Part shown: one piece after another, positions 4,341 to 49,966 of the stretch
Layout: every line of letters begins with the position of its first letter
Numbering within the stretch: position 1 is the stretch's first letter
Origin: an uncultured Planctomycetales bacterium
GTDB lineage: Bacteria > Omnitrophota > Gorgyraeia > Gygaellales > JAHJCI01
DNA length: 50,753 nt
Assembly: GCA_964592485.1 (NCBI GenBank)
Contig: CAZQEY010000010.1
Location: 1 to 50,753, forward strand
Direction: 5' to 3'
Made by a program: the position numbers and the translations under genes
Notes under the pieces: generated by a model
Databases searched by the model: none
What the model was told of the DNA's origin: nothing
What the model saw: only the letters and a program-made list of their open reading frames with translations

Positions 4341-5369
4341 CTATCTCTTTATTCTTTCTATCTTAATTATTTCAAGACTAAGAAGATCGATACCAACCGT
4401 AGATAAATGTTGTTTAACTCGGCGTATTATTTCTTTCTTAAACTCATCAGATCGAGAATTTATCATTTCTTCATAAAGATAATTTTTTGCAACTGTCCTC
4501 TTTATAGCATCGGAAATCTGAAAATTCATCTCTGGTTCATAATTCCCATCAAGATCTTTAAATTTTTTATACATTTCCTGCAATCTGTCAACAATTAGTT
4601 GAAATTGAACTCTAACATAAATATTTACAGATTTTCCTTCTTTATCTATGCATCTTATAGGATCAGGGTCGCCCTGTAAAGGATTCATATTATAAGTAAG
4701 TATCTTTCCATTAGAAAATTTAACGTTATAAGGATAAGGTTTAACTTTTGCAGTTTCTTGGTTAACTTTTTGCCAAGCAGATATAACCTCTGGAATTCCT
4801 CCAATAAGATAGCATAAAATAGCCACTATGAATATGGTCATAATGACAATAATACCTGATTTAATCTTAGAAAATTCTGACAACACCCTAATTGCTAAAA
4901 TTAAAATTAATAACTGCCATATAATAAAAGTAATCATTGTATAAAAATAAACAGACTTATTTAATAAATGAGAAATGCCCAATATAAAAATAACAACATA
5001 AGCAAGTATACTAATAAGATAAGTAGAAAAATAGGCAACAAAAATACTTCGTAATGTACACCTATTTGAACTCCTTCTTAGAAAAAACCAAAATAAAAGA
5101 GGAATAAATAATAAGTTACCTACTCCCTGAATAATTATATCGGAATTAGTTTGCGTAAAAACATAAGGTATAAAAACTCTATATTTATGATTTATTAACA
5201 ACGTGAGTATGTAGCTTGCAAAAACACAAAAAACTCCAAATATGAATGGTATCTTATTATTTTTTACCGATTCAAAAAAATGCTTCGGCCTGAAGAATAA
5301 ATTTAATATATTTTCCACTGGCATCAACTCCTTAATAATTCGTGGAGAAGCCTTAATGAGATTAATCAT
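4341..5369 (-). CDS. Polytopic membrane protein (~6 TM) with a C-terminal SPFH/band-7-like domain
   Basis: C-terminal ...AIKRTVAKNYLYEEMINSRSDEFKKEIIRRVKQHLSTVGIDLLSLEIIKIE matches the SPFH consensus pattern. N-terminal two thirds are hydrophobic. Confidence 0.55.
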   Translation of the reverse strand: MINLIKASPRIIKELMPVENILNLFFRPKHFFESVKNNKIPFIFGVFCVFASYILTLLINHKYRVFIPYVFTQTNSDIIIQGVGNLLFIPLLFWFFLRRSSNRCTLRSIFVAYFSTYLISILAYVVIFILGISHLLNKSVYFYTMITFIIWQLLILILAIRVLSEFSKIKSGIIVIMTIFIVAILCYLIGGIPEVISAWQKVNQETAKVKPYPYNVKFSNGKILTYNMNPLQGDPDPIRCIDKEGKSVNIYVRVQFQLIVDRLQEMYKKFKDLDGNYEPEMNFQISDAIKRTVAKNYLYEEMINSRSDEFKKEIIRRVKQHLSTVGIDLLSLEIIKIERIKR

Positions 5370-7415: not shown

Positions 7416-9035
7416 ATGGAAGATAAGGAAATGGAATTGATTAAATTAGCTGAAGATTATTTTGGATTTATGGCTTGCACCTATCCAGTGATGAGCCTGT
7501 CTGACGAATTCTATTTCTTCCCTCGCGCCAAGAAGGCAATTCAATATCTGGAGCGCCTAGACAGTCTGGATGAGGAAAAGATAAAACAGGATATCTCCTA
7601 CATTAAAACCCTTAAGCGAAGTTTAGAAAGATTGAATACAAAACATATGAGTCTAGAAGCGCAGATTGACCAACAGCTTCTTAAGGCGAGTATGGCCGGA
7701 TTCTTGCGAGAGTTTGAACAAATAAAAATCTGGCAAAGCGACCCTATTCTTTATCTTAAAATAACTGCCTTGGGGATAGAACAGATTGTGAACAAATTAT
7801 CGATGATAAAAACAGATATCCGGGAAGAACTCGCTTCCCGAATCAAGCAGATTCCCTCCCTTTTAAAAGAGGCAAGACAAAACTTAAAGAAAATCCCTCT
7901 TCTTTATCAAGAGACAGCAATTCAGATGGCTAAAGCAGGAACGGAGTATCTTGGAGGCTACTTCCCTTTATTTTTAAAAGCGAAATCCCTGGATACAAAA
8001 GGACTTAGAGTTTTGGCCAAAAGGGCTATTCAATCATTAGAAGATTTTAAAAAATTCTTAAAGCTAAAGCACGGCCATGATAAATTTATCAAGGATAGGA
8101 GTATCCTTGAAGATATAATCATCAACAGCTTCTCTTATAAGCGCGGGCTCTCGGAAATATTTGAAATCGCCTCGGATGAATACCAAAGAATAATAATCAA
8201 ATTAAAAAAGGTAGCCAAGCCTATCTCTCCTTCTAAAAGTTGGCAGGATATCCTATTGGGTTATAAATTAAAAGCACAAAATACACGGGAATTGCTAAAA
8301 ATCTATTCTGCGCAGATTATTAATCTAAAAGATTTTCTTGTAAAGAGTCAGCTCATCAGTATTCCAAGGATGCAGAATATCAAGGTCCTGCAGACCCCTG
8401 TTTATTTAGCGCCGATTAGGGCCTCAGCCTCCTACGCCTGCCCCTTGACCAGAAATCAGAAAGAATCAGCATTTTTTTATGTGAGCATTGATAGGGCTGG
8501 GGAGAATATCCATCAGGAATATATCTTTGTTACTGCCCATGAGACCTATCCCGGGCATCATTTACTTGATTCATTCAGGCGCAATATTAAAAGTCCCATC
8601 CGCCAACAGATTGAATCACCGCTCTTTTATGAAGGCTGGGCCTCCTATGCGGAAAGGTTAGTTGATGAATTTGGGTATCTAAATGAACCGGAGCAAAAGC
8701 TGGTTGGCTTAAGGAGACAGGCCTGGAGAGCAATAAGGGCAAAACTGGACGTGGGTATAAGGATAAATAAAATAAAAATCTCTGAGGCAGCAAGAGAATT
8801 ACGCCGACTGGGTTATGACTCATCCAGAGTCAAGGCAATGCTTAAACATTATGTGCTTACCTATGGGTATCAGTTATGTTATACTATTGGCAAATTTGAG
8901 ATTGAAAGATTAAAGAAAGAATTTGCTCCCCAAATGGGGATAAAAAATTTCCATAACTTCCTGCTTACCGGGGGGCAACTTCCCTTTGATTTAATTAAAA
9001 AGAGGATGGAGAAATTATGCCGGAAGAATTCTTAG
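7416..9035 (+). CDS. Putative zinc metallopeptidase, DUF885-like (HExxxxHH motif). The true start may be the ATG at 7431, which is SD-preceded.
   Basis: The HETYPGHH motif matches my recollection of the DUF885 HE[ST]xPGHH signature. No search was done. Confidence 0.5.
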   Translation: MEDKEMELIKLAEDYFGFMACTYPVMSLSDEFYFFPRAKKAIQYLERLDSLDEEKIKQDISYIKTLKRSLERLNTKHMSLEAQIDQQLLKASMAGFLREFEQIKIWQSDPILYLKITALGIEQIVNKLSMIKTDIREELASRIKQIPSLLKEARQNLKKIPLLYQETAIQMAKAGTEYLGGYFPLFLKAKSLDTKGLRVLAKRAIQSLEDFKKFLKLKHGHDKFIKDRSILEDIIINSFSYKRGLSEIFEIASDEYQRIIIKLKKVAKPISPSKSWQDILLGYKLKAQNTRELLKIYSAQIINLKDFLVKSQLISIPRMQNIKVLQTPVYLAPIRASASYACPLTRNQKESAFFYVSIDRAGENIHQEYIFVTAHETYPGHHLLDSFRRNIKSPIRQQIESPLFYEGWASYAERLVDEFGYLNEPEQKLVGLRRQAWRAIRAKLDVGIRINKIKISEAARELRRLGYDSSRVKAMLKHYVLTYGYQLCYTIGKFEIERLKKEFAPQMGIKNFHNFLLTGGQLPFDLIKKRMEKLCRKNS

Positions 9036-10436: not shown

Positions 10437-11210
10437 ATGATTAGGGTAAAAAAGAACTGGTGGAAAGACTTTTTCAATAATATTTATTTAATTACTGATG
10501 CCCGCAGCGTAGGCGATGTTCATCTTACCTGCCGCGAGGTTGATTTATTAGAGAAGGTTTTGCGCTTGGATAAAACTGACCGCATCCTTGATTTATTTGG
10601 CGGGCAGGGGAGGCACTCAATAGAGCTGGCAAAACGCGGCTATCGAGATTTAACCGTGCTTGATTATTCTGATTATTTGATTAATTTAGGAAGGTGCTCA
10701 GCTAAAAAAGAGAATCTCAAGATAAATTTTTATCAGGGCGATGCACGTTCTACTAAACTTGCAAATAGTAATTATTCTGTTATTATCATAATGGCTAATT
10801 CCTTCGGTTATTTCACCAATGAAAGAGAAAATGAAAAAGTATTAAGAGAAGCACACCGGTTACTTAAAACCGGAGGCAGGTTGCTTCTGGATTTGATAAA
10901 TTCTGAACATGTTAAAAATACCCTCAAGCCCACTTCCTGGCATAGAATTGACAATGATATTGATGTGTTTCGAAAAAGAGAAATTAAAAATAACCTGGTT
11001 AAAACCAAGGAGACTGTAATCTCTCAGCGGAAGGGACTGATTAGGGATGGTAGTTATTGCGAGCGCATTTACACCAAAGCAAGAATCTGCCGATTACTTA
11101 AGAAGGTGGGTTTTAAAAATATTAACATAAAAAATAATCTTTCCCTCCATAAAGAAAATCAAGATTATGGTTTGCTTACCTCAAGGATGATTGTTACCGC
11201 AAATAAATGA
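10437..11210 (+). CDS. Class I SAM-dependent methyltransferase
   Basis: Motif I LDLFGGQGRHS; post-I D; motif LLKTGGRLLLD. Confidence 0.8.
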   Translation: MIRVKKNWWKDFFNNIYLITDARSVGDVHLTCREVDLLEKVLRLDKTDRILDLFGGQGRHSIELAKRGYRDLTVLDYSDYLINLGRCSAKKENLKINFYQGDARSTKLANSNYSVIIIMANSFGYFTNERENEKVLREAHRLLKTGGRLLLDLINSEHVKNTLKPTSWHRIDNDIDVFRKREIKNNLVKTKETVISQRKGLIRDGSYCERIYTKARICRLLKKVGFKNINIKNNLSLHKENQDYGLLTSRMIVTANK

Positions 11211-11287
11211 CCCCCCTATCCTTAATAAAGAAAACTAAAATTATGGTTTACTTACCTCAAGGATGATTGTTACCGCGAACAAATAAA
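11161..11287. repeat. Tandem duplication (~48 bp unit, 75 bp period) of the 3' end of the methyltransferase gene, including the stop codon
   Basis: AAGATTATGGTTTGCTTACCTCAAGGATGATTGTTACCGCAAATAAATGA and AAAATTATGGTTTACTTACCTCAAGGATGATTGTTACCGCGAACAAATAA. Confidence 0.9.
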
Positions 11288-13213: not shown

Positions 13214-14656
13214 TTATTTACCTATACAAAATTCACTGAAGATTCTATCCAACAGTCCATCGGAAAAACGCCCACCCAAAATCTCATCTAAAAAACCAAT
13301 TGCCTCTTGGAGGTCCTGGGCGATGAACTCAAAAGGTAAATTCGCATTAGCTGATTTTCTCGCCCGCATAATTGATTTCTTTACCTTTCTAAGTTGCTGA
13401 ATATGCCTTAGATTAGTCACCCATACCGGAGTGTCTGATTTAATTTTACCACTAAATACAAATTGGGCAATTGCTTCTTCCAGCAGGTCGATATTTTTTT
13501 GTTTTTTTGCCGAGACCTGAACAACCTGCGGGAAGCGTTGAGCAATTTTATCGTACTCGATATTCTGCTTCAGGTCTATCTTGTTAATTAAAGCGATAGT
13601 CGGTTTGGAGTTAATCTTGCGCATTAAGACCCTATCTTCATACGATAAATCCCTGCTGCCGTCAAAAACAAGTAAGACCAAATTCGCCTCTCGGATATAG
13701 CGCTGGCTGCGGGAAACTGCCTTTTGTTCGATTAAATCGCCTGGTTCGATTATTCCGGCAGTATCAACAATCCTTATCGGAATGCCCCTAATATCTAAAA
13801 TGTCCTCAATTGTATCGCGGGTGGTCCCCGCAATCGGAGTAACGATTGAACGTTCACATTTTAATAATGCATTTAAAAGCGAGGATTTTCCGACATTGGG
13901 CCTGCCGCAAATAACCACCTTTATGCCTTCACGAAAAACCCTGCCCCTTTTTGAATTCTCCAAGAGAAATTCTAATTGATGATTTATTCGGTCTATACTT
14001 ATAGTGATATTCTTGATATCCACTGCTTCCAAGCCCTCATCGGGAAAATCAATATTTGCCTCCAAGATGGTAAGTAGTTCTAATAATTTATCTCTTAACT
14101 GATTCAACCTTTTTGAGAAATCCCCCTTCAATTGCTCAACGCTTGCCCTTAAGGCAGTATCCGTTTTTGCCCTAATAATATCTAATACTGCCTCAGCCTG
14201 GGTAAGGTCAATCCGACCATTTAAAAAGGCGCGCTTAGTAAATTCTCCCGGATTACTCAAGCGGGCGCCTAAACTTAAAACTAATTCCAGAGTTTTTCTT
14301 AAAGGGATAATCCCCCCGTGACAGTTAATCTCCACAATATCTTCGCGTGTATAACTTTTAGGCCTACGCATCACTGTCAGTATAACCTCATCAACAATAT
14401 CTGATTTTTGTCCGCCTTCATTTAATTTCGGCGAACAACCCGCCGAAGTCTTGACGAAGGCGGGTTGATTTTTCACAATCCATCCGTAATGAGTCGTATA
14501 GGTTTTAAAATTGGAAGGCTTTTGACCATCCTTGGAAACAAAGATCTTATCCGCAATAGTTATTGCCTTACTCCCGCTAATTCTCACAATACCAATGCCT
14601 GACTCACCAACCGGAGTGGAAATTGCCGCAATCGTATCATTTAGATTAAAATTCAT
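13214..14656 (-). CDS. mnmE: tRNA modification GTPase MnmE (TrmE) carrying a ~20 aa in-frame insertion
   Basis: GRPNVGKSSLLNAL, DTAG and C-terminal CIGK. The insertion PAFVKTSAGCSPKLNEGGQKS is encoded by a palindromic element. Confidence 0.95.
   Translation of the reverse strand: MNFNLNDTIAAISTPVGESGIGIVRISGSKAITIADKIFVSKDGQKPSNFKTYTTHYGWIVKNQPAFVKTSAGCSPKLNEGGQKSDIVDEVILTVMRRPKSYTREDIVEINCHGGIIPLRKTLELVLSLGARLSNPGEFTKRAFLNGRIDLTQAEAVLDIIRAKTDTALRASVEQLKGDFSKRLNQLRDKLLELLTILEANIDFPDEGLEAVDIKNITISIDRINHQLEFLLENSKRGRVFREGIKVVICGRPNVGKSSLLNALLKCERSIVTPIAGTTRDTIEDILDIRGIPIRIVDTAGIIEPGDLIEQKAVSRSQRYIREANLVLLVFDGSRDLSYEDRVLMRKINSKPTIALINKIDLKQNIEYDKIAQRFPQVVQVSAKKQKNIDLLEEAIAQFVFSGKIKSDTPVWVTNLRHIQQLRKVKKSIMRARKSANANLPFEFIAQDLQEAIGFLDEILGGRFSDGLLDRIFSEFCIGK
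14412..14464. repeat. GC-rich nested palindromic element inserted in-frame in mnmE
   Basis: Outer arms CCGCCTTC/GAAGGCGG. Inner hairpin TTCGGCG-aacaacc-CGCCGAA. No counterpart in E. coli MnmE. Confidence 0.7.
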
Positions 14657-25227: not shown

Positions 25228-26346
25228 TTAACAAATACGAGGCAAGGGTTCAGAGGTCAACATATCAAGGATGCGGTCTGTACCCAATGTGGTTTTAAGC
25301 AACACCATACCCCGAGGCTTAGAGACTATCCTGCCTATAATTCGGGCAAATCTTCCGAGCTTCTGCCGCTTAAGATATTTTAAGACACTGTCCGCCGAAT
25401 CAGATTTAACTACCAGAACTGCCTTTCCTTCATTAGCAATGTATAAAGGGTCAATCCCCAATAATTCACTCGCTGCCTTTATCCGACTGGCAATGGGAAT
25501 CTTTGCCTCGTGGACAACAATGCCCAAATTAGCGGCCCGGGCAATTTCATTCAAGGTTGTCGCCAATCCTCCGCGGGTAGGGTCGCGCATAAATTTTATC
25601 CCGCACCTTCTTGCCTTACTGCTATTTTTCCCTCGAGAAGGTGCGGGATTTATTGCCTCATCTTTTAATAAGGGAATCAACAGCTTATCCAGGCTAGCGC
25701 AATCGCTCTTAATATTTAGACCAAAATCCATTCCCTTGCGCTGGGTTAATATGCTTAATCCGTGTTCAGCAATCCTTCCTGTGATGATAATCTTGTCGCC
25801 GACTTCGATATTTTTTATTTTAAAATCCCTGATAACCCTGCCTATACCTGTAGTATTGATAAACAACTTATCGCAGGCTCCCCTCTCTACCACCTTTATA
25901 TCGCCGGTAATAACCTTAACCTGAGAACTCTTAGAGGCAGAAGAGATGGCATTAACCACGCGCTCTAATAATGAATAATCCAGCCCCTCCTCAATAATTA
26001 AGGCCAGGGACAGATAAAGGGGCAAGGCGCCAGAAACTACCAGATCATTTATCGTGCCAGAAACAGCAAGTTTACCAATATCCCCACCGAGGAAAAATAG
26101 GGGATGGACTACAAAGGAATCGGTAGTAAATGCTATTGCCTTATCCCAAACCTTTGGATATCTATAGAGGACTCCGCCACGTGGAAGGGTGAGAGAATTA
26201 TCTTTAAAGTCAATAACTGCGCTATCAGTTAATTTATTTAGCAGCGAATTACTGAATTTGGGCAGGATTAGATCTCTGATTAAATTATGCGTTAACTGAC
26301 CACCGCTTCCATGAGCTAATAGAATCTTCGAATTTTGTTTTATCAT
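25228..26346 (-). CDS. hypE: Hydrogenase maturation protein HypE (carbamoyl dehydratase), with a 17-codon in-frame insertion
   Basis: N-terminal LAHGSGGQL and C-terminal LPRIC. 372 aa versus ~336 aa. The insertion SAPSRGKNSSKARRCG sits where E. coli HypE has no counterpart. Confidence 0.9.
   Translation of the reverse strand: MIKQNSKILLAHGSGGQLTHNLIRDLILPKFSNSLLNKLTDSAVIDFKDNSLTLPRGGVLYRYPKVWDKAIAFTTDSFVVHPLFFLGGDIGKLAVSGTINDLVVSGALPLYLSLALIIEEGLDYSLLERVVNAISSASKSSQVKVITGDIKVVERGACDKLFINTTGIGRVIRDFKIKNIEVGDKIIITGRIAEHGLSILTQRKGMDFGLNIKSDCASLDKLLIPLLKDEAINPAPSRGKNSSKARRCGIKFMRDPTRGGLATTLNEIARAANLGIVVHEAKIPIASRIKAASELLGIDPLYIANEGKAVLVVKSDSADSVLKYLKRQKLGRFARIIGRIVSKPRGMVLLKTTLGTDRILDMLTSEPLPRIC
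25599..25649. repeat. 51 bp palindromic element (ATCCCGCACCTTCT...AGAAGGTGCGGGAT) inserted in-frame within hypE
   Basis: 14 bp perfect arms with a 23 nt loop. Length is divisible by 3. Same core as the elements at 32420, 35554 and 49829. Confidence 0.8.
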
Positions 26347-32381: not shown

Positions 32382-32522
32382 TTCAATTCGCCCGCCAAAG
32401 TTCTGTGGCGGGCGAATTGAACCCCGCACCTTTTTCCTACGAAGCAACTCTGCACAGTAGAAAGGTGCGGGGTTAATTCCGACTTACAACTTATGTCCTT
32501 TGAATAAACTCAGGACATAAGT
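32382..32522 (-). promoter_or_regulatory. Three consecutive strong hairpins in the hypC leader: a 15 bp TTCAATTCGCCCGCC hairpin, a 14 bp AACCCCGCACCTTT hairpin and an 11 bp ACTTATGTCCT hairpin
   Basis: Perfect inverted repeats at 32382-32421, 32420-32474 and 32489-32522. Confidence 0.7.
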
Positions 32523-32603
32523 TGTGTCGTCATTAAAATTCTATCATATCTGTCTTAAATTATCCAGAAAAGATTGCTTTTGCTTTGCTTGGCTTGAATC
32601 TGG

Positions 32604-33794
32604 TTAATGGGTCCAAGAGGCAACCGCTGCCTGCCCTAGACTGATGCTTATATCCGAGCAAGGCAGCATCTTATGAGTTAAAATATGAAATCCCGCTTTT
32701 TCTAATAAACCCAAACTTAACTTAAGTAGAATCTTATTCTGGAATACTCCGCCGGTTAAAATAACAGTATTAATCCGGGTGCCGCCTCTTATTCTCAGGC
32801 AGGTCTTTCTAATCATATCGGCAACAGTCAGATGAAAACAAGCAGCAATCTCTTCCTTACTGCAGTCATTTTTCAAATCAGCAATAATCTCCCTAAGGGT
32901 CAAAACCGGATCGATGACAAAAACCTGCCCAATCTTTTTAATCGCAAACTGATAACTTCTCGGCTGAGATTTATAACCAGAAGCGAGCCTTTCTAAATTT
33001 ATCGCTGCCTCAGCCTCGAATCCAACCCGGTAAATCTCTAAGACCAGGCAAGCAATAGCATCAAAGAGCCGACCAATGCTTGAGGCGGGAGGTGAATTAA
33101 AATTCTGCCTCCACATCTTTTCTAGGATAATCCAATTTTTTTTATTTATCCGTTTGAGAAAATCCAAATCTAAATCTAAAAAATTATTTCCAAAAGCCAG
33201 ACAAAGCCAAGCCGAAGCTACTCTCCAAGGTTCATAAATCGCTTTCTTGCCTCCTAAGAGAGGGATATATCTTAAGTGGGCTGCCCGTTTGAAATCCCGA
33301 TAATCAGCAACTAAGAATTCTGCGCCCCAGAGTGTTGAATCACTTCCAAAACCAGTGCCATCAAAGGCAACACCAATAACCCTTTGATTGCTAAGTTTAT
33401 TCTCAAGCATACAAGAAGCAATGTGGGCATGGTGATGTTGAACAGGAATAAGTCTTGGCCCATCAGAAATTTTTGCTCTGCATTTTGCTAAAGCACTATT
33501 TCTAGCGGAATTTATATTTTTTACTTTTTGCAAGTCGAGGATATATTTCGTCGAGAAATATCCCGGATGTTTGTCATAGGCAATAATCCTGGGTGACAGA
33601 CCAAAGCGTTGGGGAATTAAACTTATTCTCCTTTGAAATTTTTTAAAATTATCCGGTATCTCTAAATCGTTGATTACTTCGTTGATAAAAGCAGATCTAC
33701 GGTAAGCAAAGCAAAGGCTATTCTTTATATCTGCTCCCACTGCCAGTATTGGCTTCTTAATTTTAAAGGGTAAATCTATTTCTGACCAAGACAC
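32604..33794 (-). CDS. hypF: HypF-like carbamoyltransferase, Kae1/YgjD-like C-terminal domain only. No acylphosphatase, Zn-finger or YrdC domains in this ORF.
   Basis: PILAVGADIKNSLCF and QHHHAHIASC match HypF C-domain motifs. GTG start. 396 aa versus ~750 aa for full HypF. Confidence 0.65.
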   Translation of the reverse strand: MSWSEIDLPFKIKKPILAVGADIKNSLCFAYRRSAFINEVINDLEIPDNFKKFQRRISLIPQRFGLSPRIIAYDKHPGYFSTKYILDLQKVKNINSARNSALAKCRAKISDGPRLIPVQHHHAHIASCMLENKLSNQRVIGVAFDGTGFGSDSTLWGAEFLVADYRDFKRAAHLRYIPLLGGKKAIYEPWRVASAWLCLAFGNNFLDLDLDFLKRINKKNWIILEKMWRQNFNSPPASSIGRLFDAIACLVLEIYRVGFEAEAAINLERLASGYKSQPRSYQFAIKKIGQVFVIDPVLTLREIIADLKNDCSKEEIAACFHLTVADMIRKTCLRIRGGTRINTVILTGGVFQNKILLKLSLGLLEKAGFHILTHKMLPCSDISISLGQAAVASWTH

Positions 33795-35537: not shown

Positions 35538-35553
35538 AAGACAACAGACAATT

Positions 35554-35632
35554 CGCCCCGCACCTTTTCTTTATTCTTCTGGTTTTTATTTACAAATTTA
35601 ACTATATTTGAACATCAAGAAGGTGCGGGGCG
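35554..35632. repeat. Palindromic element copy (CGCCCCGCACCTT...AAGGTGCGGGGCG, ~53 nt loop) between acyP and the phosphoesterase gene
   Basis: 13 bp arms with compensatory flanking CG. Starts 2 nt after the acyP stop. Confidence 0.75.
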
Positions 35633-35633
35633 A

Positions 35634-35906
35634 TTAAAATCTTATTCCAAAATCTCTAAATTCTCCAGTTGGCTCCTGCCATTGAATATCTGCAGCCTGA
35701 ATGTAACTGCGAAAATATTGCTCAATGCGAGAAAGAAAATCCTTTAATACCGACTCCTCTGCCTCGGCAACCAACTCAACTTGACCACCGCGCAGGTTCC
35801 TTACCCAACCAGTAACTCTTGAATCCCGGGCCAAATCTTCAGTAGTAAAGCGAAAACCAACTCCCTGAACCCTACCTGAATAAAATACATGAATGCGTCT
35901 TAACAT
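35634..35906 (-). CDS. acyP: Acylphosphatase (stand-alone)
   Basis: GRVQGVGFR and GWVRNLRGGQVE signatures; 90 aa. Confidence 0.85.
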   Translation of the reverse strand: MLRRIHVFYSGRVQGVGFRFTTEDLARDSRVTGWVRNLRGGQVELVAEAEESVLKDFLSRIEQYFRSYIQAADIQWQEPTGEFRDFGIRF

Positions 35907-36260: not shown

Positions 36261-37574
36261 CTACCCCCCTTTTTTAATCCATCTGCTTAACCTTGCCTTG
36301 GTTATCTGTTTGCCTAGACAGAATATTACGTCAAACAGACCCGGCCCAATAGTCTTGCCGGTTAAGGCAACCCTTAAGGGATGAATTAATTGTCGCGAAT
36401 TCATGTTAAGCTCCTTTACCAAATCCCTGAATGTTTTCTCGATACCAACTACCGTAAACGACTCTAATCTTTGCAATCTCTCTATAAATAGACTAAATTC
36501 CCTTGATAAGTCCTGGCTTAAAAATTTGTCTTTTAGACTTTCCCCTATCTCAATCTCATCCAGGAAGAAAAAGTCCGCCCAATCTAAAAAATCCTCCAAT
36601 GTATTAATCCGGCCCTGATATAATTTCACCACTCCCGCTAACCTCTGCTTAGATAAACAGTAACTTTCTGCCTGAGGAAATCTCTTCTTAATCATGGGAA
36701 TGAGCAAATCAATAAGCCTCTCCGCAGAAGTGTTTTTGATATATTGATTGTTAATCCAATTAAGTTTATCCCGATCAAAAATTGCTGCAGTCTTATTTAT
36801 ATTGCTGATATCAAAAATTTTTATTGCTTCCTGAATATCAACAATCTCACGATTCTCTCCGGGTGACCAACTAAGAAGTAAAAGATAATTGACTAACGCC
36901 TCCGGTAAAAAACCGAGTTGGTGATATTCGCTAATCGCGGTTGCGCCGGTTCGCTTGGAAAGCCTGGAGCCGTTTTTGCCTAAGATTAAGGGAAGATGAG
37001 CAAATATAGGTATATTGTATCCCAGTGCTTGATATAAAAGAACCTGTTTGGGCGTATTGGAAATATGGTCATCCCCCCTGATTACATGAGAAACCTCCAT
37101 TGTAGCATCATCTACCACGCAGGCAAAATTATAGGTAGGCATACCATCGGATTTAATCAGCACCTGGTCTTTAATTGTGCTTGCGTCAAACTCAATCTCT
37201 CCGTGGATTAAATCATTTATCTTAACCTCACCCGGGTTAATTTTAAAGATAATTGCCTCTTGCTTATGGTTTTTGTCTTGGGTCTTATCAAAATATGCCT
37301 TCCCCTGATTTAGCAGTTTCTGGGCATGCTCTCTATAAATATCCAAACGCTTGCTTTGGTAATATATCTGGTCCCAATTAAATCCCAGCCAAGTAAGGCT
37401 CTGTAAAATCTCATCCAGGTATTCCTTCTTTGAGCGCTCCTGGTCAGTATCCTCAATCCTCAATACGAGCTGGCCCTTGTTTGCTTTAGCATAAAGCCAG
37501 TTAAACAAAGCGGTGCGCGCTCCGCCGATATGTAAATTCCCTGTTGGTGAAGGCGCGAATCTGACCTTTATCAT
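36261..37574 (-). CDS. gltX: Glutamyl-tRNA synthetase
   Basis: RFAPSPTGNLHIGGARTAL (HIGH) and KLSKR (KMSKS). Confidence 0.9.
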   Translation of the reverse strand: MIKVRFAPSPTGNLHIGGARTALFNWLYAKANKGQLVLRIEDTDQERSKKEYLDEILQSLTWLGFNWDQIYYQSKRLDIYREHAQKLLNQGKAYFDKTQDKNHKQEAIIFKINPGEVKINDLIHGEIEFDASTIKDQVLIKSDGMPTYNFACVVDDATMEVSHVIRGDDHISNTPKQVLLYQALGYNIPIFAHLPLILGKNGSRLSKRTGATAISEYHQLGFLPEALVNYLLLLSWSPGENREIVDIQEAIKIFDISNINKTAAIFDRDKLNWINNQYIKNTSAERLIDLLIPMIKKRFPQAESYCLSKQRLAGVVKLYQGRINTLEDFLDWADFFFLDEIEIGESLKDKFLSQDLSREFSLFIERLQRLESFTVVGIEKTFRDLVKELNMNSRQLIHPLRVALTGKTIGPGLFDVIFCLGKQITKARLSRWIKKGG

Positions 37575-39997: not shown

Positions 39998-40200
39998 TTA
40001 AAGACCTCAATACAACAATCCGGACAAATTAGCGCACATTGCAAACAACCCAGGCATTCTTGATTATTATCAATAAATTTAACCGGCTTTACCCCGCGGG
40101 AATTCAAGCTGTTATCCAATTTTATCAAACCGCGGGGACAAAAACTAATACAGAGCAAACACCCCTTGCATTTTTCTCGGTCAATAGTTATTCTGGGCAT
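39994..40200 (-). CDS. 2-oxoacid:ferredoxin oxidoreductase delta subunit (2x[4Fe-4S] ferredoxin)
   Basis: Two CxxCxxCxxxCP motifs. Confidence 0.85.
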   Translation of the reverse strand: MPRITIDREKCKGCLLCISFCPRGLIKLDNSLNSRGVKPVKFIDNNQECLGCLQCALICPDCCIEVFK

Positions 40201-42674: not shown

Positions 42675-42790
42675 GAAAACTTTGTAACCACAGATAAACA
42701 CAGGTAAACACTGTTAAATTTTCATAATAAAAATACGAAAGTCTTTTTCTTTCTTCTGTGTTCATCTGTGGTTTATGCTTTCTTATGCTT
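42675..42790. mobile_element. MITE-like element copy 1 with terminal inverted repeats (AACCACAGATAAACAC...GTGTTCATCTGTGGTT), between xseA and xseB
   Basis: Ends are conserved with copy 2 (46289-46405); the internal sequence differs. An extra partial end CCTCTGTGGTT lies at 42827-42842. Confidence 0.7.
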
Positions 42791-44478: not shown

Positions 44479-46390
44479 CTTGCCCTGCTCCTTTCTTCTG
44501 GCCTTCATTAGGTTTTTCCCCTATCGGCTCTTCAGGCTTAATCGGGGTTACTTGCTCCGCCTCTTCAACCTCCACAGAGACTTCTGGTTTTTTATCCATC
44601 ACAATCAAGACCACTGAATACGGCTCCAAAATTAAGGTCTCCTTATAGGTAGTAACATCCTTAATCTCTTTTTCTTCTCGCGGCATAAATGCGCAATCCA
44701 ATCGGCAGGATTTATCTACGATATATTTTTTATAGATATAATCATCCTTAAGATTGGTCAAATTTAAATTTATATTCTGAGACTGGGTAATCAAGGATTT
44801 CGCCATTTTATTTAAAGTAATTGCCTCTTCAATCTTTGCCTTTATCCTTTTGTCTAAGCGCAAGGTTTTTAGAGGAATCTCTGAATTTTTAATCCTCTCC
44901 CATTTATCGGAATGTATTAAATTTACCAATATTCTTGCCAATCTGGGGTGCAATTCAGCCAGATGTCGAGAAAGATAATCCCTGGCAAGCCTGGGGTCAA
45001 TATATTTGAACAAAAATAAGGCGAGGCCTGTTTCTGTCTTGGTGGCAATTATGCCGACAAATTCATCATCCAGGCGCGAGGCAATAAACATCTCGCTACC
45101 CAGCATATTGAGCATACTAATTACATTAAACATCGATTTTGCTCCGCCGGTGTATTTGACATGCTCCGACTCAAACCAGAATAAGCCGACATTTCGATTT
45201 ACCCCTTGTTTATTATTTTTAAAATCCTCCAGGCAAAAGAATATTTGATAATCAATGCCTGACTTTAGCATATTCCTTATCCGGCTGGGGATAAAGCTGG
45301 CAGCGACATAAGACTCCCAGCCTCGCTTGGGTTCAAAGTTTAACCCCGTATCGTAGTTCCATTCACTAATAATTAGAGGTATAGTTGAGTCTAGGCCAAA
45401 ATACGAAAGCCATTCGCGAATAAGTTTTGGAACTATATTTTTATAACAGGTAATTTCACTTTCGGCCAATGGGTCGCTGGTATAGGCATGCCAGCTAATA
45501 AAGTCCAGAGGAAGTCCCTGTTGAGAACAGAAGCGAATAAATTCGTAGATAAGGCTTTCTTCGGGATAGAAAACGGTATTGCCTTCCAAATTCTGGAACC
45601 ACCATGTTACTGCCGGGCCGCCGATGCGAATGTCACGGTTAGTCTCTTTTTCTAATTCCTTTACGCTCTGGGCTACTGCTTGATAAATATTGAGATATTC
45701 TTTTTTCTGCCCTAAAAAGAAATCGTCCGAATCCGGAGCGTTCCATATCTCGTACCAGATATCATAACCCTTCTCGCAACTCAAATAGCGGATAATATGC
45801 TTAACCAGCTCCTTGAACGCGCCGATATCCCAGGGGGAACTTTTCTTATCCAAGACCTTACCTAAGCCCGGAGGCATACCATACAAATTCAAAAGAATGA
45901 TTCCTCCAGCCGAATTTATATTTTTAATCACTGTCGAATAGTTTTCCAGAAATTCGGCCTGCATCTCTTTATCCTTAGCCAGTTGGATAAACTCCCAAAG
46001 GTCAAACTGTAAATGAAAAATACCTCCGCTCAAATCAAGACGTTCGTTGAGTTGGGCTAATACTTCGGGCGCAGCCAAGTTCTGCGGCCAGGTCGGCTGA
46101 TAATGAAACCCCCGGCCGCTTAAATCTATGCCTGGCTTTCTAAGAAGATTCGGCGTTGGTTTTGTCTTACCGGTTATATCCAAGTTGAAATCGATATCGT
46201 TACCTTGAGCGAAAGTAAAATCGCCTATAAAATTCAAAATGCAAAATGCAAATATAAGAATAAAAAAACAAAATCCAGATATTTTTAAAAAATCTTTGCA
46301 ACCACAGATAAACACGGGTAAACACTGCTTAGCATAGAGAATGCTATAAATACCGACCGCTTTTCTCCTCTTGTGTTTATCTGTGTTCAT
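44465..46390 (-). CDS. Secreted TIM-barrel glycoside-hydrolase-like protein with an acidic low-complexity C-terminal tail. The N-terminal ~35 codons, including the ATG, are supplied by MITE-like copy 2.
   Basis: IWYEIWNAPD resembles the GH5/GH39 NEP motif region. Signal peptide ILIFAFCILNFIGDFTFAQ. Start uncertain. Confidence 0.55.
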   Translation of the reverse strand: MNTDKHKRRKAVGIYSILYAKQCLPVFICGCKDFLKISGFCFFILIFAFCILNFIGDFTFAQGNDIDFNLDITGKTKPTPNLLRKPGIDLSGRGFHYQPTWPQNLAAPEVLAQLNERLDLSGGIFHLQFDLWEFIQLAKDKEMQAEFLENYSTVIKNINSAGGIILLNLYGMPPGLGKVLDKKSSPWDIGAFKELVKHIIRYLSCEKGYDIWYEIWNAPDSDDFFLGQKKEYLNIYQAVAQSVKELEKETNRDIRIGGPAVTWWFQNLEGNTVFYPEESLIYEFIRFCSQQGLPLDFISWHAYTSDPLAESEITCYKNIVPKLIREWLSYFGLDSTIPLIISEWNYDTGLNFEPKRGWESYVAASFIPSRIRNMLKSGIDYQIFFCLEDFKNNKQGVNRNVGLFWFESEHVKYTGGAKSMFNVISMLNMLGSEMFIASRLDDEFVGIIATKTETGLALFLFKYIDPRLARDYLSRHLAELHPRLARILVNLIHSDKWERIKNSEIPLKTLRLDKRIKAKIEEAITLNKMAKSLITQSQNINLNLTNLKDDYIYKKYIVDKSCRLDCAFMPREEKEIKDVTTYKETLILEPYSVVLIVMDKKPEVSVEVEEAEQVTPIKPEEPIGEKPNEGQKKGAGQDEAE

Positions 46391-46405
46391 CTGTGGTTTA
46401 TGCTT
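46289..46405. mobile_element. MITE-like element copy 2 (same termini as copy 1), overlapping the 5' end of the GH-like ORF
   Basis: AACCACAGATAAACACGGGTAAACACTG...GTGTTTATCTGTGTTCATCTGTGGTTTATGC. Confidence 0.7.
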
Positions 46406-49057: not shown

Positions 49058-49285
49058 GCTTTAGCCTCAGCTAAAGTCAGGTATTGTTTCGGGCTGAACT
49101 TCGATTGAGACTAAACTTTGATCAAAGGCTTTGCTCAAACTCCAGCCTCAGCTAAAGCGCTGCTTTAAGCTTAAACTTCAGTCAAGACTAAACTTTGATC
49201 AAAGGCTTTGCTCAAACTTTAACCTCAGCTAAAGTAAAATATTGTTTTAGGCTGAACTTTGGTTGAGGCTAAACTTTGATCAAAG
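49058..49285. repeat. About 3 tandem copies of a 68-83 bp unit, each containing palindromes CTTTAGCCTCAGCTAAAG and CTTTGATCAAAG, in the long rny leader
   Basis: CTTTGATCAAAG at 49116, 49193 and 49274. CCTCAGCTAAAG occurs three times. Confidence 0.8.
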
Positions 49286-49287
49286 AA

Positions 49288-49854
49288 TTAAGCGGAGAGG
49301 ACTTTATCTACTGGCATATCAATTTGCTCGACGGGTAAGTGCGGCAAGATTTGGAAGTCAAAGGCCAAACCAATGGAATGCGTACGTTGGGGTAACCCTT
49401 TTAGGAAGCGGTCATAATACCCTTTACCTCGCCCCAGGCGATTCCCTTTCTTATCAAACGCAAGGGCGGGCACAATCACCAAATCCAATTCATCAACAGA
49501 CAAATCAATCTTAGTTTGGGGTTCCAATGTTTGGTATGGCCCTTTATCTAATTTGCTATCTTCCATCAAAATACATGGCTTCAAGGCCTTCTGTTTAGTA
49601 TCGCATACAGGAACAAAAATCTCTTTACTAAGGCCCCTTGCCTTATTAATCATGCTTTCTGTGTTTACCTCTCCGTCAAAAGCTAGATAAAACATTATCC
49701 TCTCTGCTTTAATAAATTCCTCCTGTTTTAAAAGTTTCTCTTCAATCAGCTTGCTTTTTTGCTTACGCTCCTGCTCCGTTTGTTGTTTTAATCTATTTAT
49801 CAATATATTACGTAATTGCCTCTTTGTCAACCCCGCACCTTTTTGAAAATTCAT
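49288..49854 (-). CDS. 5-formyltetrahydrofolate cyclo-ligase
   Basis: GRGKGYYDR motif; 188 aa. Confidence 0.85.
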   Translation of the reverse strand: MNFQKGAGLTKRQLRNILINRLKQQTEQERKQKSKLIEEKLLKQEEFIKAERIMFYLAFDGEVNTESMINKARGLSKEIFVPVCDTKQKALKPCILMEDSKLDKGPYQTLEPQTKIDLSVDELDLVIVPALAFDKKGNRLGRGKGYYDRFLKGLPQRTHSIGLAFDFQILPHLPVEQIDMPVDKVLSA

Positions 49855-49952
49855 TTTTTAATTATTGTCTTGAACCCGCCCTCTTAAAAGGTACGGAATG
49901 AATATTACCCAAAATCCACCAATAATATTTTAATACGTAAAAGGTGCGGGGT
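49829..49952. repeat. Palindromic element copy (AACCCCGCACCTTTT...AAAAGGTGCGGGGT, ~95 nt loop) spanning the 5-FCL start codon
   Basis: Left arm lies within codons 5-9 (KGAGL). Right arm is 15 nt after the upstream gene stop. Confidence 0.75.
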
Positions 49953-49966
49953 CAAGTTTTCGCTCA

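Follow-up and report, generated by a model that had tools for sequence, protein, structure and literature searches.

GC-rich palindromes of an Omnitrophota contig as probable short copies of a mobile element bearing a GIY-YIG nuclease gene

Introduction

A 50,753-nt contig of an Omnitrophota metagenome-assembled genome (MAG), analysed over its full length and called the window below, contains GC-rich palindromes that share the same arms and lie both between and inside genes, one of them within a row of three hairpins in front of the hydrogenase maturation gene hypC. The locus raises the question of what these palindromes are and how they came to stand where they do. An earlier note, made from the sequence alone, had proposed selfish palindromes of the kind known as repetitive extragenic palindromes (REPs) or Rickettsia palindromic elements (RPEs), or else a family of structured RNA elements. 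Here we report that the palindromes form a family of insertions that duplicate their target, occur across phyla and are placed at gene junctions, and that their arms are linked, physically and by co-evolution, to a gene for a small GIY-YIG nuclease. We conclude that the hairpins are probably non-autonomous copies of 50-120 bp, similar to REPs or to MITEs (miniature transposable elements with inverted repeats), of a mobile element of ~300 bp that bears this gene. The best reading is that they are selfish DNA which the host tolerates both between genes and within them, and not a dedicated regulator of the hyp genes.

Results

A family of complementary arms with free loops

The sequence CCCGCACC occurs eight times in the window, where 0.54 occurrences are expected and none of 100 shuffles reached eight, and the eight occurrences form four inverted pairs. 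The 12-mer CCCCGCACCTTT, whose partner arm is AAAGGTGCGGGG, gave 16 matches with at most two mismatches against 3.3 expected, the perfect matches being exclusively the four pairs. The pairs make four clean hairpins with arms of the form YCCCGCACCTT(T)/(A)AAGGTGCGGGR (also spelled CGAATTGAACCCCGCACCTTT..AAAGGTGCGGGGTTAATTCG, or, as terminal inverted repeats of the mobile element, YCCCGCACCTTT / AAAGGTGCGGGR) and loops of about 23-95 nt, and they are accompanied by variant and decayed relatives. The four pairs, each with 14-nt perfect arms, are as follows; loops are counted between the perfect arms, and z is the folding score as single-stranded DNA (ssDNA) against shuffled sequence.

25598-25649, copy 1: span 25595-25652, element 25599-25648 (50 nt), arms ATCCCGCACCTTCT/AGAAGGTGCGGGAT, loop 24 nt, z = -7.3, inside hypE
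32420-32474, copy 2: span 32418-32476, element 32422-32472, loop 27 nt, z = -7.9, in the hypF-hypC spacer
35553-35633, copy 3: span 35552-35634, element 35556-35630, arms TCGCCCCGCACCTT/AAGGTGCGGGGCGA, loop 53 nt, z = -6.6
49830-49952, copy 4: span 49827-49955, element 49831-49951 (121 nt), loop 95 nt, z = -3.3

The four loops have no sequence relation to one another. Two claims of the earlier note, that the same GC-rich arms recur and that loops vary while arms stay complementary, are thus borne out; its description of the genome as AT-rich holds only moderately, at 41% GC. Intrinsic terminators could be ruled out, as the T/A runs lie within the stem and not after it and a terminator scan found no terminator-like site. 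Integron attC sites, IS5 ends and uptake sequences were dismissed on sequence or orientation grounds. A literature query with the arm sequence returned nothing relevant.

Insertion into hypE and mnmE

Copy 1 had been described as extragenic (25599-25649); it is instead an in-frame insertion within hypE (25228-26346, minus strand), where it encodes INPAPSRGKNSSKARRCG. Compared with solved structures (Protein Data Bank 2z1t), HypE has 17 additional residues, INPAPSRGKNSSKARRC, exactly at the palindrome; relative to an orthologue the insert amounts to 18 codons, and among 16 close homologues it is present in five (8-18 residues) and absent from 11. The closest HypE homologues with a source name come from Candidatus Omnitrophota MAGs. 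An empty site (locus L120) reads GCA ATA AGA TTC ATG and the filled site (the window and L119) reads GCA ATA AAT CCC GCA CCT ... AGG TGC GGG ATA AAA TTT ATG, a gain of 54 nt that consists of the 50-nt element and a repeated TAAA, seen in the window as the direct repeat TTTA at 25595-25598 and 25649-25652. At the same site L121 carries a shortened version of 26 nt with a compensatory arm change (CCCGCCCCT/AGGGGCGGG). Because a 2.6-kb contig of an independent Logan assembly is identical across hypE, copy 1 included, the insertion is not an assembly artefact. A second comparison of empty and filled sites, for a copy near the start of a DUF3857 gene (L118), met sequences too diverged to call.

HypE also contains an older, decayed copy at 26148-26195, identified as such because the loop at aa 48-68 retains arm remnants (3' arm remnant AAGGTTTGGGAT in the window, AAGGTGTGGGATAAA in L120); this copy is now a variable protein loop. 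MnmE carries an insertion of ~19 aa (NQPAFVKTSAGCSPKLNEGG) made by a hairpin at 14412-14467, in frame in mnmE, with outer arms CCGCCTTC/GAAGGCGG and inner stem CAACCCGCC/GGCGGGTTG. Since its arms differ (CCCGCCTTC/GAAGGCGG), we regard it as a variant and not as a bearer of the family core; of the divergent extragenic member previously placed at 14412-14464, the hairpin is real, while neither its extragenic position nor a shared core was found.

Downstream of hypE in L121, positions 11141-11265 hold five clustered arm-like half-sites, which may be nested or rearranged elements; the window has an AbpE-like gene at the corresponding place.

Spread across genomes and duplication of a TNAA target

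We scanned one genome per species (596 Gb) with the pattern CCCGCACCTT-N24-54-AAGGTGCGGG, which admits loops of 24-54 nt only. The scan yielded at least 116 stretches, where chance is estimated to give ~17 (596 Gb, 31 gap lengths, 20 fixed bases), so that the further copies for which a genome search had been suggested do exist, in very large numbers, outside the window. Among the matches listed (at least 116), the record titles name Omnitrophota in 45 cases, Patescibacteria of the candidate phyla radiation (CPR) in 28, Planctomycetota in 20, an unclassified 'bacterium' in ten and other taxa in 13, and these 13, several of them in high-GC genomes, look like the chance fraction. Several 8-kb blocks among the matches listed hold two or three copies together.

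The ends of the copies are sharply defined. The closing pyrimidine-purine pair is C-G in 65, T-A in 35 and T-G in 15 of 133 copies, and directly beside the closing bases the same 4-mer stands on both sides, in direct orientation, in 53 of 131 copies, against 0-2 in other registers. Flanks paired across different copies gave 8.2 identical 4-mers on average and 17 at most, against the 53 observed, and perfect inverted flanks occur in three copies only. In a separate count, 55 perfect direct repeats included TGAA/TTCA 29 times, TAAA/TTTA 14 times and TCAA/TTGA six times. The direct-repeat flanks are duplications of a TNAA target made at each insertion. In the window, copy 1 is flanked by TTTA/TTTA, copy 4 by TCAA/TCAA (49827-49830 and 49952-49955) and copy 2 by TGAA/TTAA; copy 3 has no such repeat.

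Placement at gene junctions and in RNA genes

In 40 of 132 copies the 3' arm leads, with a gap of 0-1 nt, into an open reading frame (ORF) of 100 codons or more, where start-codon frequency predicts ~3, and in 14 of those 40 an upstream ORF (at least 100 codons) also stops at the TGA of the 5' flank. These junction copies are most simply read as insertions at ATGA sites where stop and start overlap: the upstream stop would be kept by the duplicated TGAA, the element's final A or G would complete a new ATG or GTG, TTG being possible too, and the AAGGTG of the 3' arm, 4 nt upstream of the new start, would act as a sequence similar to a Shine-Dalgarno (SD) site. In copy 4, on the minus strand, a TTG start directly after the arm opens the ORF of a 5-formyl-tetrahydrofolate (5-formyl-THF) cyclo-ligase (180 codons).

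In the junction copies the 5' ATG begins a mini-ORF, MNPAPS...EGAG*, whose stop overlaps the downstream start as ATGA/GTGA; both its start and its stop follow from the duplication of TGAA. The frame is found in 21 of 44 copies, somewhat more than its share, and is mostly open. We rejected the mini-ORF as a real gene given this weak frame bias and the internal stops in several copies; that it may preserve translational coupling is speculation.

Structured RNA genes are entered as well. In L144 (positions 760-1600) the RNase P RNA gene of a CPR bacterium, recognisable by GAGGAAAGTCCGG close to the 5' end and ACAGAATCCGGCTTATCGG close to the 3' end, has four copies of the element in its helices, with junctions also in L130, L159 and L185. 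The first of these copies holds a complete GIY-YIG ORF; Rfam at gathering score did not call the L144 RNase P RNA gene. In L110 (positions 7416-7516) the arms enclose a tRNA-Arg(GCG) gene in place of the loop and would give the tRNA precursor a long 5'/3' duplex.

Full-length elements carry a single-domain GIY-YIG gene

Single-domain GIY-YIG proteins of the Ssn type (~94 aa, cd10448) bind hairpins, called NTS or SRM, that flank their gene, and they cut just upstream of these hairpin repeats, on ssDNA only; protein and repeat co-vary, and the NTS-ssnA-NTS arrangement resembles an insertion sequence (IS) (Chenal et al. 2025, PMC11893778). We found no literature on Ssn after that description.

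Full-length elements of the present family, ~300 bp long, consist of the family arms around one gene for an 85-100-aa single-domain GIY-YIG nuclease. One arm pair (L065, 337 nt) encloses an ORF of 102 aa with a PF01541 match at E = 1.5e-16 and another (L100, 298 nt) an ORF of 85 aa at E = 7e-16; PF01541 spans essentially the entire proteins (82-102 aa), and the invariant residues Y5, Y16, R26, H30 and E62 match the spacing of Y6, Y17 and E64 in SsnA. Against solved structures, the family profile is nearest to UPF0213 BH0048 (1ZG2; 60 bits, E = 1.8e-15) and SLX1; its median score is 68 bits against a large GIY-YIG family of proteobacterial type, which may be that of SsnA.

A metagenome search with the GIY-YIG protein gave 600 candidate stretches, of which 438 were confirmed and 80 loci kept. 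Of 77 GIY-YIG ORFs, 62 stand between the halves of an exact inverted repeat 12 nt or more in length, against one of 274 windows shifted by 0.7-1.5 kb. The nine closest homologues have exactly the arms ACCCCGCACCTTT; more distant proteins have other arms, such as ACCCCCACACCAA, GCCCCTCACTTGGAAAGAAT or ACCCAGCACCACTTTT, which amount to ~35 types and are always complementary. The arms thus co-vary with the protein, as predicted for a cognate pair of enzyme and site.

Full-length copies too have direct-repeat flanks, in either orientation relative to the ORF. L155 contains two full-length copies of 313 nt, 98% identical and 1 kb apart (77-389 and 1034-1346), whose identity ends exactly at the arms and which are both flanked by TATGA, followed by an ATG gene start. 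A GIY-YIG element lies between mlaF and mlaD in L205, and its outer flank, CGAATTnA-CCCCGC...GCGGGG-TTnAATTCG, is shared with copy 2 of the window and with many Omnitrophota copies. No ORF of transposase size was seen between distant paired arms in the ~0.9 Mb of loci retrieved; the enclosed ORFs all encode GIY-YIG proteins.

In the gammaproteobacterial MAG of L106 (positions 4990-5260) a GIY-YIG ORF stands within a different inverted repeat, CCCCGTTAGAG/CTCTAACGGGG, with the direct repeat TATGA, and these arms recur in L200 and L201, so that the architecture is not confined to the CCCGCACC family.

Three hairpins in the hypF-hypC spacer

The 240-nt spacer between hypF and hypC is shared by three adjacent hairpins, in agreement with the three tandem hairpins reported earlier for the hypC leader. 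Its features are these.

32382-32421: variant GC-rich hairpin CGCCCGCC, arms TTCAATTCGCCCGCCA/TGGCGGGCGAATTGAA of 16 nt, z = -8.9
32413-32481: copy 2 with its stem lengthened by an outer inverted repeat, CGAATTGAA/TTAATTCCG, z as above
32486-32527: AT-rich 14-bp hairpin ACAACTTATGTCCT/AGGACATAAGTTGT, not a member of the family, z = -6.3
32538-32566, minus strand: promoter-like site, TGGATA-17 nt-TG-TAGAAT, by consensus match only, in a block conserved in L121

The first hairpin, which the earlier note had singled out as related, is real; it abuts copy 2 just upstream of the ribosome-binding site and GTG start of hypC, and is possibly a member of a sister arm family; L121 has a hairpin of different sequence at this position. 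The AT-rich hairpin has arms 100% conserved in L121 and a different loop there. The orthologue of copy 2 in the L121 spacer has almost invariant arms and a diverged loop, and the block upstream is also almost invariant, in a pair of genomes whose coding DNA is 70-83% identical and whose proteins are about 75% identical. As the promoter-like site lies upstream of the three hairpins, these are probably part of the hypC 5' leader, whose length, estimated from that site and the GTG start, is probably ~170 nt; copy 2 would probably be transcribed within it. The host may by now make use of the leader hairpins, for instance to stabilise mRNA.

Discussion

A proposed mechanism and what weighs against it

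Our results suggest a scheme for the spread of the palindromes. The arms would pair with each other in ssDNA; the nuclease would read the GC-rich stem by sequence and shape and cut at its foot, on the model of SsnA and NTS; and host functions or repair would complete the move to a TNAA site, leaving the 4-bp duplication. The same nuclease would mobilise the short hairpins, acting on ssDNA or on cruciform stems as SsnA does, and the genome of the window would have, or would once have had, such an enzyme. The copies of the window itself are passive, since no nuclease gene lies in it. Copies would survive where a hairpin is harmless, that is in spacers, at ATGA junctions, in protein surface loops (hypE, mnmE) and in the helices of structured RNAs, and copy 2 may have come to play a part in the hypC leader. 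We also put forward a bolder version, tentatively and at somewhat less than even chances: that the family represents a prokaryotic transposon of a kind not classified before, smaller than any other autonomous one known, which makes 4-bp TNAA duplications and owes its movement to a GIY-YIG nuclease of a single domain and not to an enzyme of the DDE, HUH, serine, tyrosine or Cas1 kinds. It would be spread over Omnitrophota, CPR/Patescibacteria and Planctomycetota, with ends that evolved to be harmless by rebuilding stop, SD and start, by forming peptide loops or by substituting for helices of RNase P RNA.

Several observations weigh against the proposal that the hairpins are copies of a mobile GIY-YIG element. 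About 60% of the copies are without a perfect direct repeat, and the copies inside the RNase P RNA gene have none. Within the window there is no GIY-YIG gene, and no copy bearing one was found on a contig labelled Omnitrophota. Copy 2 and its neighbours are more conserved between the window and L121 than the surrounding coding DNA, which points to selection at the level of the host at that site rather than to pure parasitism. To our knowledge, strand transfer is not an activity of GIY-YIG enzymes, which are hydrolytic nucleases, and it is DDE transposases that classically leave a 4-bp duplication. The protein is no more than a candidate for the Ssn clade (cd10448), its nearest solved relatives being UPF0213 proteins and SLX1.

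Alternative explanations

The most serious alternative, though an improbable one, is a domesticated system of the Ssn/NTS type, in which a GIY-YIG ssDNA nuclease encoded on the chromosome recognises the hairpins, the host maintains them and they do not actively transpose; the nuclease would restrict or modulate incoming ssDNA during natural transformation, as in Neisseria. Such biology is documented (PMC11893778), the arms are conserved across phyla while the loops are free, and copy 2 has been kept between two genomes at about 75% protein identity; the per-copy duplications, the empty hypE site, the near-identical full-length copies at different sites, and the nested copies and those inside coding sequence and RNA genes nevertheless indicate insertion activity. 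A host role of this kind is compatible with a mobile origin. Somewhat less probable again is an ordinary MITE of a DDE-type IS, with its transposase elsewhere in the genome and the GIY-YIG gene as a passenger or a secondary invader of the loop. Terminal inverted repeats with a 4-bp duplication are typical of DDE elements, and the lack of a known strand-transfer activity in GIY-YIG enzymes would fit a passenger; a passenger is not expected to co-vary with the arms over ~35 arm types, however, and the arm pairs of the fetched loci enclose no transposase-sized ORF.

We consider it very unlikely that the palindromes are primarily functional RNA or translation elements that spread because they are useful, whether by sequestering the SD-like AAGGTG, by stabilising or processing polycistronic transcripts, or by encoding the coupled mini-ORF. 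The 3' arm that stands 4 nt before a start codon in 40 of 132 copies, the over-represented and mostly open mini-ORF frame, and the three hairpins downstream of a conserved promoter-like site, with no terminator-like tail, would all suit such elements. The start and stop context is, however, automatic if TGAA is duplicated at ATGA junctions, and the modest frame bias can be explained by shared ancestry. Copies also lie in both orientations, in coding sequence, in RNase P RNA and around a tRNA; Rfam at gathering score called two tRNAs only in the window and no family matching the hairpins, and on the hypF-hypC spacer with an E-value threshold it gave only spurious matches far under threshold. 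Copies in coding sequence, in either orientation and with target-site duplications, together with the lack of an Rfam match, thus make the structured-RNA family of the earlier note unlikely as the primary explanation. Least probable of all is a REP/REPIN family mobilised by a RAYT, an HUH tyrosine transposase: the palindromes are indeed GC-rich, abundant, mostly intergenic and sometimes clustered, but the conserved GTAG tag of RAYT-type REPs is absent and the flanks are instead TNAA direct repeats (TGAA, TAAA or TCAA, copy by copy), and mechanisms of the IS200/RAYT type leave no target duplication. Among the 45 Pfam-annotated ORFs of the window there is no transposase, RAYT or GIY-YIG gene, and no repeat-flanked gene for a Y1 HUH transposase or other Y1/HUH protein; the suggested search for a tnpA-REP/RAYT homologue thus found none there, and the enzyme inside the full-length copies is a GIY-YIG nuclease.

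Relation to known systems

The palindromes are a real mobile family similar to REPs and MITEs, and they are best filed as a variant of the Ssn/SRM kind, and not as a RAYT system or primarily an RNA regulator. The present family and the Ssn system have in common a GIY-YIG protein of one domain and ~90 aa, GC-rich repeats that can form hairpins on either side of its gene, a CCCGC/GCGGG core, many copies of the repeat per genome, and covariation of repeat and protein. In both, the repeat that flanks the gene on either side is dispersed in the genome. They differ in architecture: ssnA has an SRM on either side, each a small hairpin complete in itself (stem 7-9 bp, loop 4-5 nt, CGTC tag), whereas in the present family the flanking repeats are half-sites, so that the gene lies inside one long hairpin, with stems of 12-20 bp, loops of 20-120 nt and 4-bp TNAA duplications. 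By inspection, the window hairpins do not fit the SRM pattern HGTCWY N0-2 YYVSBRH N0-5 WNVSBRG N0-2 RNCYNB; the stem cores CCCGCAC and TGCGGGG do fit YYVSBRH and WNVSBRG, but the loops are 24-95 nt long against the 5 nt or less allowed, and the tag is RTNAA instead of HGTCWY. The hosts of the present family (Omnitrophota, CPR, Planctomycetota) are not mentioned for Ssn (PMC11893778).

NTS/SRM repeats belong to the CGTC-tagged REPs, which include Neisseria dRS3 and Rickettsia RPE-4 and RPE-6 and for which no transposase was known at the time (Di Nocera et al. 2013, PMC3733652). These are likewise short GC-rich palindromes with a one-sided unpaired tag that gives them orientation, and a GTCAAC-CCCGC subfamily of the present family resembles the CGTC REP CGTCATTCCCGC; they differ in their fixed 8-9-bp stems and 4-5-nt loops and in being mostly alphaproteobacterial, and no duplication is mentioned in the part of their description consulted (PMC3733652).

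HypE and MnmE, with their in-frame palindromic inserts, recall a further Rickettsia family. RPEs are palindromic inserts in frame within protein genes that become extra peptide segments; they are 100-150 bp long and restricted to a genus, and for RPE-1 we know of no encoded enzyme. The earlier comparison with REPs and RPEs holds for the complementary arms, the free loops and an in-frame copy of the RPE type, and fails in that the palindromes are not strictly extragenic. Abundant palindromes, and a gene for their cognate enzyme that has these repeats on its flanks, are also found in REP/REPIN-RAYT systems; the RAYT is an HUH tyrosine enzyme, and its REPs have a GTAG tag and no target duplication. 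As in MITEs, there are terminal inverted repeats, the target site is duplicated, and numerous short copies exist beside a longer coding partner whose ends are the same. Bacterial MITEs such as the Correia elements of Neisseria share with the family the terminal inverted repeats, the short duplication, insertion beside genes and the excess of non-autonomous over autonomous copies, and Correia-type MITEs affect the expression of genes beside the insertion. The parents of known MITEs encode DDE transposases of ~1 kb or more, whereas the only partner found here is the 300-bp GIY-YIG element; the ORFs enclosed by its arms included no recognised transposase (DDE or similar).

Significance

Whether the Ssn nuclease and its repeat are mobile as a pair was left as a hypothesis in the 2025 description. 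The present family adds signs of mobility at the level of the sequence, namely a site without the insert, duplications made copy by copy, and almost identical copies whose likeness stops exactly at the arms, and it adds the architecture of a gene inside one hairpin, in phyla largely made up of uncultured bacteria with small genomes. It illustrates a route to neutral insertion, by a rebuilt stop, SD and start at gene overlaps, an in-frame protein loop or an RNA helix, and it offers many new specificity pairs of nuclease and hairpin. The repeats will also distort gene calling: they give rise to mini-ORFs and to N-terminal extensions that are false, and Rfam at gathering score leaves an RNase P RNA gene uncalled.

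Other features of the window

The gene content of the window is housekeeping only, on Pfam annotation of its 45 ORFs, and the genes lie almost all on the minus strand. They include hypC, hypD, hypE, HypF (Kae1-like half only), mnmE, a fusA-like gene, purH and gltX, as well as por subunits, dxs, xseAB, rny, ymdB and the 5-formyl-THF cyclo-ligase gene. Copy 3 is placed between the stop of an acylphosphatase (35634-35636) and the start of a metallophosphoesterase (35537), without a clean direct repeat. Further palindromic or repeated features are the following.

49871-49902: decayed copy, TGAA-C-CCGCCCTCTT..AAGGTACGG-A-ATGAA, nested in copy 4 within its loop, as read from the sequence, and included in the scored ssDNA fold
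40092-40137: GC-rich hairpin of the por-dxs spacer, CCCCGCGG/CCGCGGGG, loop 30 nt, z = -2.4, possibly a distant relative of the family, on weak evidence
42686-42773 and 46300-46398: second, unrelated palindromic family built from AACCACAGATRAACAC (6 matches in the window against 0.03 expected), with internal 10-nt repeats
49105-49285: three copies of the ~23-nt TTGAGRCTAAACTTTGATCAAAG, each with the palindrome CTTTGATCAAAG, in a 350-nt spacer upstream of rny, which could be an operator-like array

The HypF of the window (32604-33794) is the Kae1-like C-terminal half only (396 aa), in which Pfam found no zinc-finger or YrdC domain. A stand-alone acylphosphatase ORF (35634-35906) lies 1.8 kb upstream of it, with an RNase T/WYL gene and the metallophosphoesterase gene between. 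L121 has the same RNase T/WYL gene followed by a HypF C-terminal half of 376 aa, and this locus ends before the acylphosphatase. GltX (36261-37574) matches the model of the class I synthetase catalytic domain in two stretches, and this split may reflect another insertion within a protein.

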